From: Actinomycetes bacterium
Lineage (GTDB): Bacteria; Actinomycetota; Acidimicrobiia; IMCC26256
NCBI GenBank assembly: GCA_046081705.1
Contig: JBJTWK010000081.1
Location: 26,680-90,679 of the forward strand
Length of the DNA: 64,000 nucleotides
Direction: 5' to 3'
Part shown: positions 10,510-26,657 of the stretch, piece after piece
How the letters are laid out: each line of letters opens with the position of its first letter
How positions within the stretch are numbered: the first letter of the stretch is position 1
Notes under the pieces: model-generated
Told to the model about the DNA's origin: nothing
The model's input: the letters and a program-made list of their open reading frames with translations, nothing else
Databases searched by the model: none
Made by a program: the position numbers and the translations under genes

Positions 10510-12687
10510 ATGTCGAAGCGTCCCCTCGCCGTCGTCGGCGCCATCACCGTCACGCTCGCGCTGCTCGCCGGGTGCGGCGGGGAGTCGGGCAAGGAGTCGG
10601 CCATCACCCCGCAGCCCGTCTCGCGCCAGACGCTGCAGGACATCCTCTCGGTGAACGGCGAGCTCCGCCGCGAGAAGACCCAGACCATCAACGCCCCGAC
10701 CGACGGGCGGGTGAGCGAGATGAACGTCGACGACGGCCAGGAGGTCAACGTCGGCGACGTCCCGTTCGCGCTCGACGGCCGGGCCGCGGTCGCCGTGCCG
10801 GGTGACTTCTCGTTCTTCCGCACGCTCGACGTCGGCTCCGACGGCCCCGACGTGCTCCAGCTGGAGAAGATCCTCTCGGCCGACGGCTTCAGCCCCGGCC
10901 GCGTCGACCGCACCTACACCGAGCAGACGCGTTCGGCGCTCGCCCGGTGGCAGGCGAAGTACGGCTACGGCGGCGCGAAGCCCGAGACCGACGAGACGGT
11001 CCAGATCGCGATCACCGGCAACAGCGCGGGCTACCGCACCGGCCGACGCGGCTCCGCCGTAGCCACCATCCTCTCGACCGCCACCTCCGTGGCCGCCGAC
11101 GGCTCGACGCAGGTCGGTCCGATCCCGCCGGCCCGCCGCGGCCGGGTGCAGGCGTCACTCGCGGCCTTCCCCCGCGCGGGTACGCCGGATAAGCCGGTCA
11201 TCGAGATCGCCACGAGCACCCCGTTCGTGCAGGAGAGCCCGAGCGGGGACACCGCGTGCTGGACGGTGACCGCCGACGTCGCACCCTCCCGGGACACCGT
11301 CGTGCCGCTGCAGATCCAGGGCGACGCGAACGGCGCCGACAGCGCCCGCAACGGCGACTACAAGACCCTCGAGGGTGACGTCACCATCCTCGCCGGGCAG
11401 ACCTCCCAGCAGTTCTGCACCGACATCTTCGACGACCGCATCGTGGAGGACGACGAGGAGATCACCGTCGTCATCCAGGTGCAGTTCGGCAACGACCCGA
11501 ACTTCGTGGTCGGTCCGACCGACCGCGCCACGGTCACCATCGAGGACGACGACACCGGCACGCCCGTCATCACCATCTCGGCCGACTCGGCCAAGGTGAA
11601 CGAGGGTCAGGGTGCGACCTTCCGGCTCCGCTCCACCCTCGAGCTCAACCGCGGGCTGGACATCTTCGTCCGCATCGGCGGCTCGATGACGGTCAACGAG
11701 GACTACCGGCCGCTGACGCAGGACTACGTCACGCTCGGGGCCGGCCAGACCGAGACCACGTTCACGATCACGCCGCGCACCGACGACAACGTCGAGCCCG
11801 ACGAGATCCTCACGGCGACGATCGTCTCCGACCCCGACATCGACCCGCAGCCGTACACGATCGGATCCCCGTCCCAGGCCTCCATCACCGTCGAGTCCGG
11901 CGACGTGCCCGAGCTCAACCTCTCGGGCGGGGGTTCGGTGCGCGAGGGCGGCACGACCACCTTCACGATCACGGCGACCCAGCCGATGGTCGAGGACACC
12001 ACCATCAACTTCCAGGTTGGCGGTTCGGCGACCCCGGGTCAGGACTACCAGGTGCTGTCCGGCATCGTGATCATGCGGGCCGGGACCTCGAGCGTCACCA
12101 TCCCGATGCGCACGTTCTCGGACGACGTCATCTTCTTCCCGTCCGACATGATCGTCGCGAACTGGCCCGCTCGGGTCGGGACCGTCGCGGTGGACGCCGG
12201 GGAGTTCGTCCTGCAGGGTTCGCCGGTGCTCGACCTCACCGAGCCCGCCATCAGCGTGAAGCTCAAGCTCTCCGGCACCGAGCGGGCGAAGATCGAACTC
12301 GGCATGGAGGCCCAGATCCAGCTCGAGGCCGGCGGCACGCAGTACCCCGGCATCATCACCGCCCTCGACGACTCCGCGACCGTCGGATCGGACAAGTCCG
12401 AGGTGTACGAGGGCATCGTGTCGGCCACCGGCGAGCTGCCGAACGTCGACGGCGCGAGCGTGAGCATCGACATCACGCTGGCCGAGCGCAAGGACGTCCT
12501 CGCCGTCCCGATCGCCGCCGTGCTGAAGTCCGGGTCCGGCAACTTCGTGCGCATCGTGAACGACGAGGGCCGACTCAAGCGGATCGAGGTCGAGCTCGGC
12601 CTCGCCCAGGACGAGTACGTCGAGATCACCAAGGGCCTCAAGGGCGACGAGCTCGTCGTGGTCTCCGTCACGAGCGCGGCCCAGTGA
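10510..12687 (+). CDS. MacA/YknX-like membrane-fusion (adaptor) lipoprotein with a peptidoglycan-binding domain and inserted Calx-beta-like domains
   Basis: Lipobox LLAG-C; lipoyl half-motifs APTDGRVSEMNVDDGQEV and ARVGTVAVDAGEFV; PG-binding GSDGPDVLQLEKIL...TRSALARWQ; Calx-beta DY...VTILAGQT...DDRIVEDDE; C-terminal VLAVPIAAV...VELGLAQDEYVEITKGL. Confidence 0.8.
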   Translation: MSKRPLAVVGAITVTLALLAGCGGESGKESAITPQPVSRQTLQDILSVNGELRREKTQTINAPTDGRVSEMNVDDGQEVNVGDVPFALDGRAAVAVPGDFSFFRTLDVGSDGPDVLQLEKILSADGFSPGRVDRTYTEQTRSALARWQAKYGYGGAKPETDETVQIAITGNSAGYRTGRRGSAVATILSTATSVAADGSTQVGPIPPARRGRVQASLAAFPRAGTPDKPVIEIATSTPFVQESPSGDTACWTVTADVAPSRDTVVPLQIQGDANGADSARNGDYKTLEGDVTILAGQTSQQFCTDIFDDRIVEDDEEITVVIQVQFGNDPNFVVGPTDRATVTIEDDDTGTPVITISADSAKVNEGQGATFRLRSTLELNRGLDIFVRIGGSMTVNEDYRPLTQDYVTLGAGQTETTFTITPRTDDNVEPDEILTATIVSDPDIDPQPYTIGSPSQASITVESGDVPELNLSGGGSVREGGTTTFTITATQPMVEDTTINFQVGGSATPGQDYQVLSGIVIMRAGTSSVTIPMRTFSDDVIFFPSDMIVANWPARVGTVAVDAGEFVLQGSPVLDLTEPAISVKLKLSGTERAKIELGMEAQIQLEAGGTQYPGIITALDDSATVGSDKSEVYEGIVSATGELPNVDGASVSIDITLAERKDVLAVPIAAVLKSGSGNFVRIVNDEGRLKRIEVELGLAQDEYVEITKGLKGDELVVVSVTSAAQ

Positions 12688-13406
12688 CCGACCCGGACCT
12701 GAGAGCCCCGGAGGGCACCGAGCCCTTCCTCGAGCTCACCGACGTCTCGCGCGTCTACGGCGACGAGGTCAAGGTCTACGCGCTCCGTGAGGTCTCCCTG
12801 CGCATCATGCCGGGCGACTTCATGGCCATCGTCGGCCCGTCGGGTTCCGGGAAGTCCACGATGCTCGGCCTCCTCGGGTGCCTCGACCTCCCCTCGTCGG
12901 GTTCGATCCGCATCGCGGGCGAGGAGATCACCACCCTCGATGACACGAGCCGGACCCGACTGCGCGGCCGCACCATCGGATTCGTCTTCCAGCAGTTCCA
13001 CCTCATCGGGCACCTCAGCGCCCTCCAGAACGTCGAGACCGCCCTGCTGTACCGCGGCATGAAGCCGAACGAACGGCACGACAAGGCCATGGAGGCGCTC
13101 GAGCGCGTCGGGCTCGGTCAGCGCTGGGACCACCGGCCCGTGCAGCTCTCCGGTGGCGAGCAGCAACGGGTGGCGCTCGCCCGTTCTCTGGTCACCGACC
13201 CCATCATCGTGCTCGCCGACGAGCCGACGGGCGCGCTCGACTCCAAGAACGCCGAGAACGTGATGCAGATCTTCGAGTCGCTGCGCTCCCCGGAACGGGC
13301 CGTCGTGCTCGTCACCCACGACCTCGGCGTCGCCGACCGGGCCGACCGCAGGATCTCGATGCACGACGGCGAGATCGTCGGCGACGACCGGAAGGTGCGC
13401 GCGTGA
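12684..13406 (+). CDS. ABC exporter ATP-binding protein (MacB/LolD family)
   Basis: GPSGSGKST, GFVFQQFHL, LSGGEQQRVALAR, LADEPTGALD. Confidence 0.93.
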   Translation: MTDPDLRAPEGTEPFLELTDVSRVYGDEVKVYALREVSLRIMPGDFMAIVGPSGSGKSTMLGLLGCLDLPSSGSIRIAGEEITTLDDTSRTRLRGRTIGFVFQQFHLIGHLSALQNVETALLYRGMKPNERHDKAMEALERVGLGQRWDHRPVQLSGGEQQRVALARSLVTDPIIVLADEPTGALDSKNAENVMQIFESLRSPERAVVLVTHDLGVADRADRRISMHDGEIVGDDRKVRA

Positions 13407-22704: not shown

Positions 22705-22728
22705 GACGGCCCCCTCGCGGGGGCCGTC
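22705..22728. terminator. Bidirectional terminator-like hairpin
   Basis: Perfect stem GACGGCCCCC-TCGC-GGGGGCCGTC between the convergent dehydrogenase and tRNA-Ser genes. Confidence 0.7.
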
Positions 22729-22732
22729 TCGA

Positions 22733-22825
22733 TGGCGGAGGGAGAGGGATTTGAACCCTCGAGGGGGCTTTGCACCCCCTACTCGCTTAGCAGGCGAGCA
22801 CTTTCGGCCACTCAGTCATCCCTCC
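22733..22825 (-). tRNA. tRNA-Ser(GCT), CCA encoded
   Basis: GGAGGGATGACTGAGTGGCCGAAAGTGCTCGCCT-GCT-AAGCGAGTAGGGGGTGCAAAGCCCCCTCGAGGGTTCAAATCCCTCTCCCTCCGCCA; long variable arm. Confidence 0.97.
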
Positions 22826-22836
22826 GAGAGCGCCCG

Positions 22837-22842
22837 AGTGTA
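22837..22842 (-). promoter_or_regulatory. -10 element (TACACT) of the tRNA-Ser(GCT) promoter
   Basis: TACACTCGGGC, 11 nt before the mature 5' end. Confidence 0.6.
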
Positions 22843-22885
22843 CCCGGCGTCGGGACCGGGTCCACCGGCCGGGCGGCCGTGCCGA

Positions 22886-24559
22886 TCAGTCGTCGGCGCC
22901 CTGGTCGCGCAGGTGTCCGCCGACGTGGCCGATGACGAGTCGCCGCACCGGTGAGCCACCCGGAGCACCCGGTGTCTCGTCGAGCGCGCAGTAGATCCGG
23001 AGCAGTTGCTTCCCGCCGCTCATCCGCAGGTGCGGTCCGAGCACGACCTGGCGACCGTCGACCTCGCGCAGGTAGTCGGCCGCGAACTTCTGCTTCGCCG
23101 TGTCGGACACGCCGCCGGCCCAGTCGAGGCCGAGTCCGCGCGCCGTCGCGGTGAAACTCCCAGTGAGTGCACCGGACGCCCACTCGCTCGCGAGGAACTC
23201 GAGCCTCGTGAACGCGGTCCACACCTCGTTCGTCCGGTCGTACTGCCACCGGCGCGCCGACTCGATCGCCTCGGGGAGGATCCGCAGGTGGGGCAACTCC
23301 CGGGCGCGCTGGACGACGGCGACGAGCGGTTCGGCCGGCGGCGGTGCGTCGGTGACCTCGCCCGCGTGGGCCCGAGCGATCCAGCGGTCGCGCATCGTGT
23401 CGAAGTCCCGCTGCACCCGGTCGCGGTCCGCCTCCACCCGCGCGAGGTGCTCGCGCACCCGCTGCAGTTCGCCGAGCGCCTCCTCGAGGAGTTCCTCCTC
23501 GACCGCGTCCGCGGGCGCGGCGGCCACCACGGGCTCGGGCACCGGTTCGGGCGCGACGGGTACGGCGGGCGCGACCACCGGCGGCGCAGCGACGGGCGGC
23601 TCCGCGACGGGAGGTTCGACAGCGAGCGGTTCCTCGACCCGGGCCGCACGTTCGGCCCGCCGACGCTCGATCGTGCGACGGACCTCGGCCGCCTCGAGTC
23701 GGGCGACCAGCGGCGGATCCGGCACCCGGAGCGCACCCGCGGTGAACACGGCGTCGACGACCGCACCGATGAACGAGGGCTGGGGCCGCCCGTCGTGGCG
23801 CACCACGTCGGTGACCTGCCACGCCCGATTGCGCGCCGCGTCGATCGAACGGAACCGGGGCCAGTAGAGCCGCGCCCCGCCGCGTGGCACGGCGTGCACG
23901 GCCCCGACCTCCCGGTTGAACGCGTCCGTCGACGCGCCGCCCTGCAGCAGGTGCACGTGGGCGAGGCCGGCGACCCGGAAGGCGACGGTCGTGGCGACGG
24001 GCGCGGTGCGTCCGTCGCCCGCGTCCGAGATCACGAGCACCGGCAGGTGCCGCAGCGACGTGAGGAACGCGTCGAGCGCGAGCGCGTCGTCGGCGGCGGT
24101 GGGCTTCGGGCCGATCGAGAGCCGGGCCATCGCGTCCTCGAACGCGATCGCCCCGATGAGTTCGGTGACGATGCCGGGCGGCGTGCGCGGGTTGTCGACG
24201 GGCGGGGTCAGGGTCGGATCGATCGACCCGATCGCCTCCCGCACCACGACCCACCCACGCTCGTCCTCGACGCCGATGATCGCCTCGGTGCGCAGCCGCA
24301 GCGCCGGGTCCGGGTGCGGACGCTCCCAGAGGATGACCGTGGCCGCGTCATCGCTCTTGTCGTCGTGGAGCCGTCGGATCCGGACCCGGTGGTCGGGCGC
24401 GGGCGCCCAGTCCGTGAGGTCGTCGTCGGTCCAGTCGTCACTCCCCGCGTACTGCTCGAAGAGGCGACGGGCGATGACGCGGGCGTTGAACGCGTCGGTG
24501 CGCGTGCGCGCCCCGGACTCGTAGACCATGTCGAGTCTGCACGCGTAGACCTGCCGCAC
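22886..24559 (-). CDS. Uncharacterised 557-aa protein: N-terminal alpha/beta region, Pro-rich linker, coiled coil, possible RelE-like C-terminal domain
   Basis: GAGGAGG RBS; coding-like composition; VEPPVAEPPVAAPP linker; EELLEEALGELQRVREHLARVEADRDRVQRDF coil; C-terminal GPHLR...LRIYC...RLVIGHVGGHL. Confidence 0.65.
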   Translation of the reverse strand: MRQVYACRLDMVYESGARTRTDAFNARVIARRLFEQYAGSDDWTDDDLTDWAPAPDHRVRIRRLHDDKSDDAATVILWERPHPDPALRLRTEAIIGVEDERGWVVVREAIGSIDPTLTPPVDNPRTPPGIVTELIGAIAFEDAMARLSIGPKPTAADDALALDAFLTSLRHLPVLVISDAGDGRTAPVATTVAFRVAGLAHVHLLQGGASTDAFNREVGAVHAVPRGGARLYWPRFRSIDAARNRAWQVTDVVRHDGRPQPSFIGAVVDAVFTAGALRVPDPPLVARLEAAEVRRTIERRRAERAARVEEPLAVEPPVAEPPVAAPPVVAPAVPVAPEPVPEPVVAAAPADAVEEELLEEALGELQRVREHLARVEADRDRVQRDFDTMRDRWIARAHAGEVTDAPPPAEPLVAVVQRARELPHLRILPEAIESARRWQYDRTNEVWTAFTRLEFLASEWASGALTGSFTATARGLGLDWAGGVSDTAKQKFAADYLREVDGRQVVLGPHLRMSGGKQLLRIYCALDETPGAPGGSPVRRLVIGHVGGHLRDQGADD

Positions 24560-24692
24560 CGGATGCGCCCTCCTCGACGGCGAGGCTACCCGGCGGCCCC
24601 TCGGGCCCCCACCGACGAACTCTGGAGGGTTTCCGTCGCTCCAGCAACGGTTTCCCTACGAAGTTCGGGACTCGGGTCGGGTGACCTCGGGG

Positions 24693-25160
24693 TCAGTCGC
24701 CGAGGGCGAGGCGCTCGAGACGCTCGAGGGTGCGCTCCATGTTGGGCGTCACCTGCTTCTCCATGCCCACGAGGCCGTAGATGCCGCGCTGCTTCGATCG
24801 GGTCGGGTCCCAGGTCTCGGTCACGAGCGTGCCGCCCTCGACCTCCTCGAACTCGTACCGCCAGATCACCGGACCGATGCGACGGGCCAGGATCCCGGGA
24901 CCGTCGAGCTTCGGGGTCCACGCGAAGCGCCGACCCTCCTCGTACTCCACGACCTCGTTGACCATCTTGTACGGGATGTACATGTGCATCGACATCCCGA
25001 ACGTGTCACCGGGTCCGACCTTCCCGGACGGGAGCGGCGAGCTCCTGACCGTGCCGGAGCCGTCGAAGGCGGGGTGCTGCGACGGGTCCGCCACGAGGTC
25101 GAACAGCCGCTGAGCGGGCGCGGGGATGAGCCGGGATGCGGTCTTCACGCTTGCTGCCAT
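24693..25160 (-). CDS. SRPBCC/polyketide cyclase family protein
   Basis: IPAPAQRLFDLVADPSQHPAFDGSG, NEVVEYEEGRRFAW, WRYEFEEVEGGTLVTETWD, MERTLERLERL. Confidence 0.9.
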   Translation of the reverse strand: MAASVKTASRLIPAPAQRLFDLVADPSQHPAFDGSGTVRSSPLPSGKVGPGDTFGMSMHMYIPYKMVNEVVEYEEGRRFAWTPKLDGPGILARRIGPVIWRYEFEEVEGGTLVTETWDPTRSKQRGIYGLVGMEKQVTPNMERTLERLERLALGD

Positions 25161-25194
25161 GTCGGGAGGATAACCCCGAGCCGCCCGATCGGCC

Positions 25195-25548
25195 TCAGGT
25201 CGTGACCCGCACGGCGAGCGCGGTCGCGGCCCACGGACCGAGCGGTTCCCCACCTCCGGCCCCGTACTTGCTCGCCAGCGCCCGCCGTACCGGCGCATCG
25301 GCCGGCAGGTCCGGGACCACCATCGCCGTCCGCCCCACCCGGGACCCGGCGACCTCGAACGCCACGGCGGGATCGACCGCGAGGTTGCGCACCCAGTCGG
25401 TCGAGCCGTCGGGTTCCGTGAGGAGCCAGCAGGCGCCGTCCGACCAGACGAACCAGATCTCGATCCGATGGGGGCGGCCGGACCGGCGCCCGGTCGTCGT
25501 GAGGTACCCGAACTCCTCCCCCGCCCACGCGGGAGCCGCGCCGGTCAG
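25195..25548 (-). CDS. Deazaflavin (F420)-dependent nitroreductase family protein
   Basis: YLTTTGRRSGRPHRIEIWF, DWVRNLAVDPAV, RRALASKYG; start uncertain (CTG overlapping the upstream TGA). Confidence 0.8.
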   Translation of the reverse strand: MTGAAPAWAGEEFGYLTTTGRRSGRPHRIEIWFVWSDGACWLLTEPDGSTDWVRNLAVDPAVAFEVAGSRVGRTAMVVPDLPADAPVRRALASKYGAGGGEPLGPWAATALAVRVTT

Positions 25549-26657
25549 GACGCGGCCAGCATGCGGCCGAGGCGGGCGAGCGTCGGGGTGGCGGCCCCGA
25601 GGGTGAACTCGTTCTCCTTGAGCCACAGGAAGTAGCGGTGGATCGGGTAGTCGACGTCGATCGAGATGCCGCCGTGCACGTGCAGCACCGCGAACCCGAC
25701 GCGGCTGCCGCCCTCGGCCGCCCAGTACTTCGCCGTCGCGACCTCCTCACGGGCCGCCTCGCCGAGCGCCAGGTGGGACGCCGCACCGAGCATCGTGAGG
25801 TGGATGCCCTGGGTGTCGATGAACGAGTCGGCCATGCGCTGACCGACGGCCTGGAACGTGGCGAGCGGGCGATCGAACTGCTTGCGGTTCGTCACGTGCT
25901 CGGCCGCGATCCGGATCGCCTCCTGCGCGCAGCCCGCGCTGATGGCGCACAGGGCGACGGTCGCGTGGTCGAGGATCGAGCGCAGCGTCGCACCGTCGTC
26001 GAGCGTGCCGCCGAGGAGCGCGTCGACCCCGACCTGCACGTCGGTGAGGGTCACCTCGAACCGGGGCTCGTGCGACATGGTGTCCTGACGTCCGAGGGTG
26101 ACCCCGGCCGTCTTCGGGTCGACGAGGAAGACGCCGATCCCGTCCGGGGTCGTCGCCGGCACGAGCATCACGGCGGCGAGATGCGCCGCGGGGACCGTCG
26201 ACTTCACACCCGAGATGGTCCAGCCGTCACCGGCCCGGGTCGCGGTCGTCGACGGCGCCTCGGGGTCCGCACCGAACTCCTCGTACGCGCCGGTGAGCAC
26301 GGTCGATCCGGCGACGACACCCGGCAGGTGCGCCGCACGCTGCGCGTCGGTGCCGTACGTGGCGATCGGGAACGCGCCGGCGGCGAGGGTCGCCCACATC
26401 GGCATCGGCACGACGCGCCGCCCCTGCTCCTGCAGGATGAGGCAGAGCTCGAGGAAGCCGAAGCCGAGCCCACCGTGGGCCTCCGGCACGGCGACACCGA
26501 GCAGGTTCGCCGTCGCGAACTCGGCCCACGTGTCGCGGTCGAACCAGTCGTCGCTGGCGTCGAGTTCCTTGAGCCGCAGCAGCGTGCCCTTGTCGGTGAG
26601 GATCTGAGCGGCGAGACCCTGGAGTGCCTGCTGCTCGTCGGTGAGGGTGAAGTCCAT
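25545..26657 (-). CDS. Acyl-CoA dehydrogenase, non-catalytic alpha-type subunit (ChsE/FadE27-28-like)
   Basis: MDFTLTDEQQAL, GLGFGFLELCLILQEQGR, RKQFDRPLATFQAV, HVHGGISIDVDYPIHRYF. Confidence 0.85.
   Translation of the reverse strand: MDFTLTDEQQALQGLAAQILTDKGTLLRLKELDASDDWFDRDTWAEFATANLLGVAVPEAHGGLGFGFLELCLILQEQGRRVVPMPMWATLAAGAFPIATYGTDAQRAAHLPGVVAGSTVLTGAYEEFGADPEAPSTTATRAGDGWTISGVKSTVPAAHLAAVMLVPATTPDGIGVFLVDPKTAGVTLGRQDTMSHEPRFEVTLTDVQVGVDALLGGTLDDGATLRSILDHATVALCAISAGCAQEAIRIAAEHVTNRKQFDRPLATFQAVGQRMADSFIDTQGIHLTMLGAASHLALGEAAREEVATAKYWAAEGGSRVGFAVLHVHGGISIDVDYPIHRYFLWLKENEFTLGAATPTLARLGRMLAAS

Follow-up and report, generated by a model that had tools for sequence, protein, structure and literature searches.

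A very divergent HEC-07-family gene maintained upstream of tRNA-Ser(GCT) in Acidimicrobiia, and its possible role as a single-chain anti-phage protein

The gene and its surroundings

The window analysed here, a stretch of 64,000 nucleotides from an Actinomycetes bacterium of the Acidimicrobiia (contig JBJTWK010000081.1, positions 26,680 to 90,679 of the forward strand), carries a gene for a protein of 557 amino acids (aa) immediately upstream of tRNA-Ser(GCT). A sequence-only reading of this DNA, made without database searches, had described the protein as an orphan with a possible RelE-like RNase at its C-terminus, which might act as a single-gene abortive-infection factor at a tRNA hotspot. 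Our comparisons place the protein, as a very divergent member, in the described HEC-07 family of defence genes, and point to one old insertion at this site followed by vertical descent. The coordinates of the gene, of the domains of its product and of the adjoining features are given in Table 1.

The genes are arranged in the order pheA, serS, tRNA-Ser(TGA), two acyl-CoA dehydrogenases (ACADs), an SRPBCC gene, the HEC-07-like gene and tRNA-Ser(GCT); past this tRNA, on the other strand, there are a 2-hydroxyacid dehydrogenase (2-HADH) gene and a NIPSNAP-like gene, and an Nramp gene is also found among the neighbours. The GC content at the gene was about that of its surroundings (about 0.70-0.75). 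The earlier description of an adjoining tRNA-Ser(GCT) was correct, since 60 bp separate the stop codon from the tRNA, which follows on the same strand. So was the statement that no small antitoxin open reading frame (ORF) accompanies the gene: no small ORF was found in the 133-bp upstream or the 60-bp downstream spacer, and none was conserved beside the gene in relatives. Across the clade no partner ORF was conserved at all, the sole conserved neighbours being the SRPBCC gene and the tRNA, both of which are older than the insertion. For this reason the SRPBCC gene was rejected as a partner, and it was also ruled out as a relative of the N-terminal domain of the protein (BLASTP E 0.39).

Table 1. 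Features of the HEC-07-like gene and of the tRNA-Ser(GCT) junction (positions in the window)
Feature	Position	Strand	Basis or remark
HEC-07-family gene, 557 aa	22886..24559	minus	GTG start, TGA stop; ORF and translation
N-terminal alpha/beta domain, aa 1-125, possible sensor	24185..24559	minus	AlphaFold2 model
Thioredoxin-fold middle domain, aa 126-280, no Cys	23720..24184	minus	AlphaFold2 model (about aa 128-275), Foldseek
Helical arm, aa 281-405	23345..23719	minus	AlphaFold2 secondary structure and pLDDT
Putative RNase domain at the C-terminus, aa 406-557, homologue of NsnC PB-BECR1	22889..23344	minus	PADLOC NsnC, model
60-bp spacer, gene stop to tRNA	22826..22885	minus	sequence
-10-like hexamer TACACT	22837-22842	minus	11 nt before the tRNA 5' end
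tRNA-Ser(GCT)	22733..22825	minus	ARAGORN; nearly invariant across loci
GC-rich hairpin GGCCCCC-GCGA-GGGGGCC, just past the tRNA	22708..22725	minus	sequence
SRPBCC (Polyketide_cyc2) gene, conserved upstream neighbour	24693..25160	minus	Pfam PF10604, E 3.9e-13; marks the ancestral junction

Family membership and domain layout

A word-indexed search returned 22 clusters of close homologues, all of them hypothetical proteins of metagenomic Actinomycetes. When a subfamily profile made from 13 close homologues was scored against 1.84 billion representatives, 2,269 representative clusters matched at E<=1e-3, 1,022 at E<=1e-10 and 153, over the full length, at E<=1e-30. Most of the 2,269 family matches were 500-540 aa long and aligned end to end, and the N-terminus MRQVYACRLD was kept in homologues. 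Scans of the whole protein against Pfam, NCBIfam and PHROGs gave zero matches, a PDB sequence search with it gave noise only, and a search for homologous proteins with the family alignment returned nothing beyond the close subfamily. No extra domains were detected in a Pfam scan of the longer family members (596-1,002 aa).

The family is nevertheless modelled in PADLOC as HEC-07, so that the word orphan, already contradicted by the cluster counts, had to be given up. The only direct match of the 557-aa protein to a HEC-07 model was to PDLC04159 (E 3.5e-5; aa 128-242 against positions 129-244 of 531), a collinear and partial match covering the thioredoxin-like domain only. Much stronger matches were obtained with the relatives: in a sample of 70 subfamily-profile matches scanned with the PADLOC models, PDLC04161 was matched by 69 (best E 3e-63), PDLC04159 by 67, PDLC04160 by 59 and PDLC04158 by 57. 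This transitive hidden Markov model (HMM) evidence, together with the architecture of the protein, identifies it by homology as a divergent member of the HEC-07 family, one that PADLOC itself would probably not call.

HEC-07 (Hma-embedded candidate 07) is a single gene, represented by PADLOC models PDLC04158-04161, whose product was described as an AdoMetDC-like N-terminal domain, a thioredoxin-like second domain without a CxxC motif and a C-terminal domain that has a conserved His (H543) close to its end and resembles HP0892, a toxin of the RelE family; in E. coli, phage plaquing was reduced by seven candidates, HEC-07 among them (Payne et al., bioRxiv 10.1101/2024.01.29.577857). Like HEC-07, the present gene is a partnerless single gene of about 500-560 codons in whose product an alpha/beta N-terminal domain, a thioredoxin-like domain without CxxC, a helical region and a putative RelE-type C-terminal domain follow one another in the same order, and this product has a conserved His a few residues before the end (H549). 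In contrast to HEC-07, it belongs to a very divergent branch, codes for a long Pro-rich linker, stands apart from other defence systems, and is fixed at one chromosomal site with vertical inheritance in an Acidimicrobiia clade.

The full-length AlphaFold2 model, built on 13 homologues, had a mean pLDDT of 69 and bore out the N-terminal alpha/beta domains, the Pro-rich linker and the separate C-terminal domain proposed from the sequence; the sensor-arm-RNase arrangement in one chain, also proposed there, agrees with the published description of HEC-07. At the N-terminus, aa 1-112 were modelled as a beta-alpha-beta4 unit with low pLDDT (29-75). Foldseek searches with this low-confidence model gave weak DcrB, PsbP, EagT6 and Bet v 1-like matches and no AdoMetDC match.

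The middle domain was modelled better (pLDDT 75-94), and Foldseek with the full model retrieved thioredoxin-2 (2ppt, probability 0.99, TMt 0.55), calsequestrin (6owv, probability 0.99) and several other thioredoxins. The only cysteines of the whole protein are C7 and C524, and there is consequently no CxxC motif in the thioredoxin-like domain. The most conserved positions of the family lie in this domain, between aa 128 and 234: P128, R170-x-L-P173, G198-x-A-H-V (A200-H201-V202, the GLAHV motif at aa 198-202) and W233-P. P173 was found in all 70 sequences, R170 and G198 in 69, and W233 and P128 in 68. That the strongest conservation falls in a Cys-free thioredoxin fold, and not in the putative RNase, suggests a functional pocket, which may be a sensing or latching site.

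The helical arm consists of a helix at aa 285-308, a disordered Pro/Ala/Val-rich linker at aa 310-349 (positions 23513-23632) and a long helix at aa 350-398. The linker differs in length and sequence among relatives, and the stretch of the gene coding for the arm had the lowest conservation at the nucleotide level.

The C-terminal domain matched the PADLOC models of NsnC, with E 1.7e-5 for PDLC03912 (aa 415-550 against positions 189-310 of 316) and E 7.6e-5 for PDLC03879. NsnC was matched by 63 of the 70 relatives as well (best E 1.3e-15). NsnC's C-terminal domain has been assigned to the BECR/RelE-like fold as PB-BECR1, with an H-R-H triad (PMC12065111). When aa 405-557 were modelled alone on an alignment of 27 sequences, the model reached a pLDDT of 92.8 and a pTM of 0.87. 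Its elements follow one another as a short strand, a helix, a long helix, a helical insert, four to five strands and a conserved G-x-H-L-R-D tail (in domain numbering E21-23, H25-32, H39-58, an insert made of H65-71 and H82-92, E93-96/E99-102, E106-111, E114-125, E134-143 and the tail). This order fits the RelE-like BECR topology of a recent classification, a comparison of element order and not a superposition. The C-terminal motif reported from the sequence, GPHLR...LLRIYCALD...RRLVIGHVGGHL, was present and conserved.

A candidate active site can be drawn from Y496, H510, R521, Y523, D527, H545 and H549, all of them present in the protein of the window and located on the strands and the tail. 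Among the 70 sequences, H510 was invariant, position 523 was always Y or H, Y496 was found in 68, D527 in 63, R521 in 56 and H545 in 55; the position of H549 was occupied by H in 49 and by K in 21. In the Menshen system the effector domain of NsnC is alike: the last ~135 aa of the present protein align with it, and H510, R521 and H549 are comparable to the published H-R-H triad. Unlike NsnC, however, the present protein lacks the inactive-PIN N-terminal domain, the NsnC match being confined to the C-terminal domain, and neither the NsnA (ParB/DUF262) nor the NsnB (ABC ATPase/DUF3696) family occurred among the genes called within 10 kb on either side in L001 and L002. The present gene is thus not a Menshen system, and the domain sits on a different scaffold.

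The same domain was also found by itself. Plasmid pEDY32-46I of Euzebya pacifica (NZ_CP031166.1, 572 kb; L037, 6674-7390) encodes a hypothetical protein of 238 aa that contains only the C-terminal domain and is 38% identical to aa 424-555, which shows the effector module to be portable. Its gene lies beside a MerR regulator, with an AAA ATPase nearby and a DUF262 gene at a distance of ~7 kb, and the locus may be a different system that uses the same effector module.

Descent of the gene at the tRNA-Ser(GCT) junction

Anchoring on the adjacent ACAD gave 27 loci of named genomes, namely Acidimicrobiia metagenome-assembled genomes (MAGs) and the isolate IMCC26256. In all 15 of these loci that contain tRNA-Ser(GCT), a HEC-07-like ORF ended 55-140 bp upstream of the tRNA on the same strand; when L035 and five contigs obtained by tRNA anchoring are counted with them, the distance was 55-153 bp. 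The block of SRPBCC, gene and tRNA-Ser(GCT) was kept across the clade down to a protein identity of 33-36%. Identity of the HEC-07-like protein dropped with housekeeping distance, but faster: it was 87-91% where SerS was 93-94% identical, 50% where SerS was 84% identical, and 33-36% where SerS was 73-77% identical. When 89 family members were placed in a maximum-likelihood tree, the 15 genes linked to the tRNA came out as one clade (SH-aLRT 98), the internal order of which mirrored the housekeeping distances. Four distant family members had no tRNA nearby: one was next to an Mrr-type nuclease and a helix-turn-helix (HTH) gene, one next to DUF2924 and two among ordinary genes. The tRNA-linked copies are placed among housekeeping genes.

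Two kinds of locus in this collection call for separate mention. In an Acidimicrobiia MAG (L029, 14583-16563) the gene was split over two overlapping frames, matching HMM positions 1-259 and 253-520, which points to a frameshifted pseudogene or, alternatively, to an error of assembly. A MAG labelled 'Bordetella parapertussis' contributed two contigs (L008 and L020; CALQAT020000152.1 and CALQAT020000170.1) with Acidimicrobiia-type genes, among them an ACAD 75-77% identical to that of the window and, in L020, a HEC-07-like gene with 54% identity. Mislabelling or contamination of this bin is probable.

As an independent anchor we used an invariant stretch of 28 nt of the tRNA, with which 80 metagenomic contigs were fetched. 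Sixty of them extended 600 bp or more beyond the tRNA on its upstream side; the gene was present in 5 and missing in 55. In 8 of the 55 contigs without the gene, an SRPBCC orthologue (40-50% identical) ended about 10-100 bp before the tRNA, representing an empty site, and several of these contigs also shared SerS upstream and 2-HADH downstream. One of them (L116) had a SerS 75% identical to that of the window, the same depth as that of filled loci. In the filled sites the gene sits between the SRPBCC stop codon and the -10-like hexamer. Comparison of filled and empty junctions, together with the monophyly of the tRNA-linked copies, indicates one ancient insertion. Most simply, the gene was inserted once, between the SRPBCC stop and the tRNA's -10 element, in the common ancestor of a clade of Acidimicrobiia to which IMCC26256 belongs, and was passed on vertically from then on. 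The sequence-only reading had contrasted its proposal with a gene of the syntenic core genome; the gene is indeed syntenic and vertically inherited in the Acidimicrobiia clade, and it is missing at the same site in related lineages.

The one unusual trait of this gene is its class-deep vertical fixation at a tRNA promoter. A hexamer TACACT, TAGAGT or TATACT was found at the same distance from the tRNA in all 16 aligned loci. In the empty-site contigs, the stop codon TAG of SRPBCC lies within a -10-like TAGACT, 11 nt before the tRNA; this overlap was seen at the junction upstream of tRNA-Ser(GCT) in L042, L079, L087, L090, L102 and L116, and means that the tRNA promoter overlaps the end of a protein-coding gene. 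Scans with sigma-70 and terminator consensus sequences returned nothing in the GC-rich region around the gene. The hairpin past the tRNA, kept in the close relatives L001 and L003-L007, is likely to be the terminator of the unit; lacking a T-run, it is missed by the scan for consensus terminators.

Dependence of the tRNA on the gene's promoter is made less likely by the occurrence of the -10-like hexamer in both filled and empty sites, read-through from the gene being still conceivable. Should the tight class-deep coupling to the tRNA be functional, the gene would be a HEC-07-type RNase, captured a single time at the tRNA promoter, that a streamlined freshwater clade of Acidimicrobiia has kept as a core gene for immunity or translation control, wired to the tRNA locus. 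Read-through could then co-transcribe gene and tRNA to the shared hairpin, tying the dose of toxin to tRNA supply, or, alternatively, tRNA-Ser could be a substrate or decoy of the RNase. We give this idea the least credence of all those considered here. The tRNA has an apparent -10 element of its own, with which the adjacency needs no functional link.

The gene is under purifying selection. The ratio of nonsynonymous to synonymous substitution rates (dN/dS), measured against L004 and L001 (87-89% identical), was 0.10-0.11 for the HEC-07-like gene, 0.03-0.08 for SerS and the ACADs, and 0.17-0.24 for SRPBCC and 2-HADH; the value for the gene shows that it is functional, with an ORF conserved far beyond chance. 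The gene evolves faster than its housekeeping neighbours. The comparison of the window with L006 (11646-13337) was extreme in this respect, the flanks having 92-94% protein identity and the gene 61%, with a raised dS of 0.78 and a dN of 0.32 in the gene against a dN of 0.02-0.15 in the flanks. Nucleotide identity between the two falls sharply at the upstream intergenic region. The allele of L006 is deeply diverged within a frame that is conserved, as is typical of conflict genes, and it points either to allele replacement by recombination or to an old balanced polymorphism.

In four freshwater metagenomes the depth was even across the gene and its flanks, without frameshifts; a read joint skipping 908 positions was disregarded, its support on one side being 21 nt. 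The intergenic region at 24593-24693 was the least conserved (39-47% identity to L004 or L006), and a minor strain, seen in two of the four metagenomes, had ~100 bp of it replaced by an unrelated sequence of 39 nt. Both observations indicate that the promoter or leader region of the gene is hypervariable. Farther upstream, ~380 bp between the second ACAD and SRPBCC (25161-25544) were missing in the relatives L001, L004 and L006. This part contains a minus-strand ORF (about 25195-25560) for a small F420H2-dependent quinone reductase or PNPOx-like protein (PF04075, E 1.8e-9), which its absence from those relatives marks as a strain-specific insertion of a single gene.

The proposal of a tRNA hotspot stood only as far as an insertion beside a tRNA is concerned. 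A mobile single-gene abortive-infection factor, sitting where a tRNA serves as an integration hotspot for a variable defence island, would agree with this insertion and its empty sites, with the much greater divergence of the L006 allele than of its flanks, and with the variability of the 3' side of the same tRNA. There the distance to 2-HADH ranged from 77 to 3,231 bp among contigs (L040-L117), and L001 had an extra ORF of 284 aa (11885-12739) with no Pfam match. Integrase-borne islands, however, usually lie 3' of the tRNA, and the gene is on the 5' side. No integrase, repeats or other defence genes were found nearby, the GC content does not depart from that of the surroundings, all the tRNA-linked copies fall into a single clade and follow the housekeeping genes in their descent, and there were no phage matches and a single partial plasmid match. 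We consider a mobile island improbable; an insertion hotspot, if there is one, is on the 3' side of the tRNA and not on the side of the gene.

Possible function and significance

We propose, with a probability of about 0.6, that the gene encodes a divergent HEC-07 single-chain anti-phage protein, an auto-inhibited BECR/RelE-like RNase that derives from one vertically kept insertion. The family membership, the domain layout, the conservation of residues and the purifying selection on which this proposal is built are established by the comparisons above; RNase activity, auto-inhibition, a trigger and a defence phenotype in the Acidimicrobiia lineage are suggested by analogy with the described systems. 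The chain would have four parts: the N-terminal alpha/beta domain, the Cys-free thioredoxin-fold domain, the helical arm and a metal-independent BECR/RelE-like RNase domain. The N-terminal and thioredoxin-like domains may keep the RNase off within the same chain, and with such in-chain inhibition no antitoxin gene would be needed. A phage-derived cue would lift the inhibition, and the freed RNase could cut host and/or phage RNA, either mRNA on the ribosome or tRNA, with the predicted outcome that translation halts and the infection is aborted.

Several observations weigh against this proposal. The direct match to HEC-07 spans ~115 of 531 profile positions, and the mechanism of HEC-07 itself was described without a test by mutagenesis (10.1101/2024.01.29.577857). 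Foldseek of the C-terminal domain against the PDB had a best E of 0.39, with none below 0.001 and no toxin in the top 50, and did not retrieve the structures of HP0892, YafQ, RelE or ParE; against BFVD it found only one unnamed protein of 101 aa (E 3.7e-3). A PDB search with the profile of the domain gave nothing beyond noise. With hhalign, the probability against a YafQ profile of 25 sequences was 0.1% and there was no signal against the single YafQ sequence, which had been checked to be identical to 4ML2; in the most permissive run only LRIYCALD was paired with ILIYKLTD of YafQ, a pairing of no statistical weight that corresponds to the likeness picked out in the sequence-only reading. The Pfam families ParE, YafQ, HigB and YoeB did not match the domain, and Toxin_YhaV did so at E 0.035 in one of the 27 sequences. 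At the locus, the gene is surrounded by housekeeping genes, with no integrase, repeats, mobile-element or other defence genes near it, unlike most defence-gene contexts; its protein had zero matches in phage sequences and one partial match in plasmids, and none of the RNA runs contained the gene. Finally, a housekeeping role would also account for a gene that a deep clade has kept under strong purifying selection.

The claim of a RelE-like tail has accordingly been only partly sustained. The RelE, YafQ and HP0892 toxins are alike in the predicted order of strands and helices, in the location of conserved residues on equivalent strands and on the C-terminal tail, and in local motifs (LRIYCALD and ILIYKLTD; a G-x-H near the end). 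They differ in that the present domain is ~50 aa larger through its helical insertion, is fused to an N-terminal region of 400 aa and has no antitoxin gene, and in that no sequence or fold match with them had statistical support. The domain cannot be filed as a member of the RelE/ParE family on the tests run here, and the label 'RelE-like RNase' is supported by homology to NsnC's C-terminal domain and to HEC-07, by topology and by the literature, and not by our fold and profile comparisons. If these negative tests are taken at face value, the C-terminal domain would be a binding or regulatory module instead of a nuclease, and the thioredoxin-fold pocket would be the functional centre, in a role unrelated to RNA cleavage. 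The concentration of the highest conservation in that domain (P173 100%, R170 99%, G198 99%, W233 97%, P128 97%) is in keeping with such a role, which we nonetheless hold to be improbable in view of the NsnC and HEC-07 homology just mentioned.

A more serious alternative, still an unlikely one in our judgement, is that the protein is a domesticated housekeeping RNase, active in stress-induced translation control, RNA quality control or tRNA metabolism, whose role in defence has been lost. Vertical inheritance with fixed synteny at a SerS identity of only 73-77%, a dN/dS of about 0.1 that is as low as that of housekeeping neighbours, fixation in the population, metabolic and translation genes as neighbours in place of defence or mobile genes, and the conserved position directly upstream of a tRNA would all be expected of such an enzyme. 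However, related lineages have the same SRPBCC-tRNA junction without the gene, which shows that it is dispensable, and the protein diverges far faster than its flanks, to the point of a 61%-identical allele in a 92-94% frame. In addition, distant family members adjoin Mrr-type restriction and HTH genes or DUF2924, the tested member of the family, HEC-07, is a defence gene, and the position next to the tRNA loses weight if the tRNA has, as it appears, its own -10 element.

An anti-phage role of the HEC-07 type therefore remains the reading that we prefer. With it, an apparent orphan is placed in a described defence family, and the family is extended to a very divergent branch that is barely detected by the PADLOC models. 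The negative fold and profile tests are also a caution for the family as a whole, whose label 'RelE-like' is based so far on a small number of published comparisons. A patchy distribution and mobility are usual among defence genes. In this case a single-gene system in a housekeeping neighbourhood can be traced to one datable insertion, the empty sites of sister lineages being intact, and purifying selection has preserved it while small-genome freshwater Acidimicrobiia underwent a deep radiation. The locus is a clean example in nature on which to ask for how long, and for what reason, a gene of the abortive-infection type can persist, and it is a candidate for the main innate-immunity gene of an abundant, hard-to-culture lake lineage.

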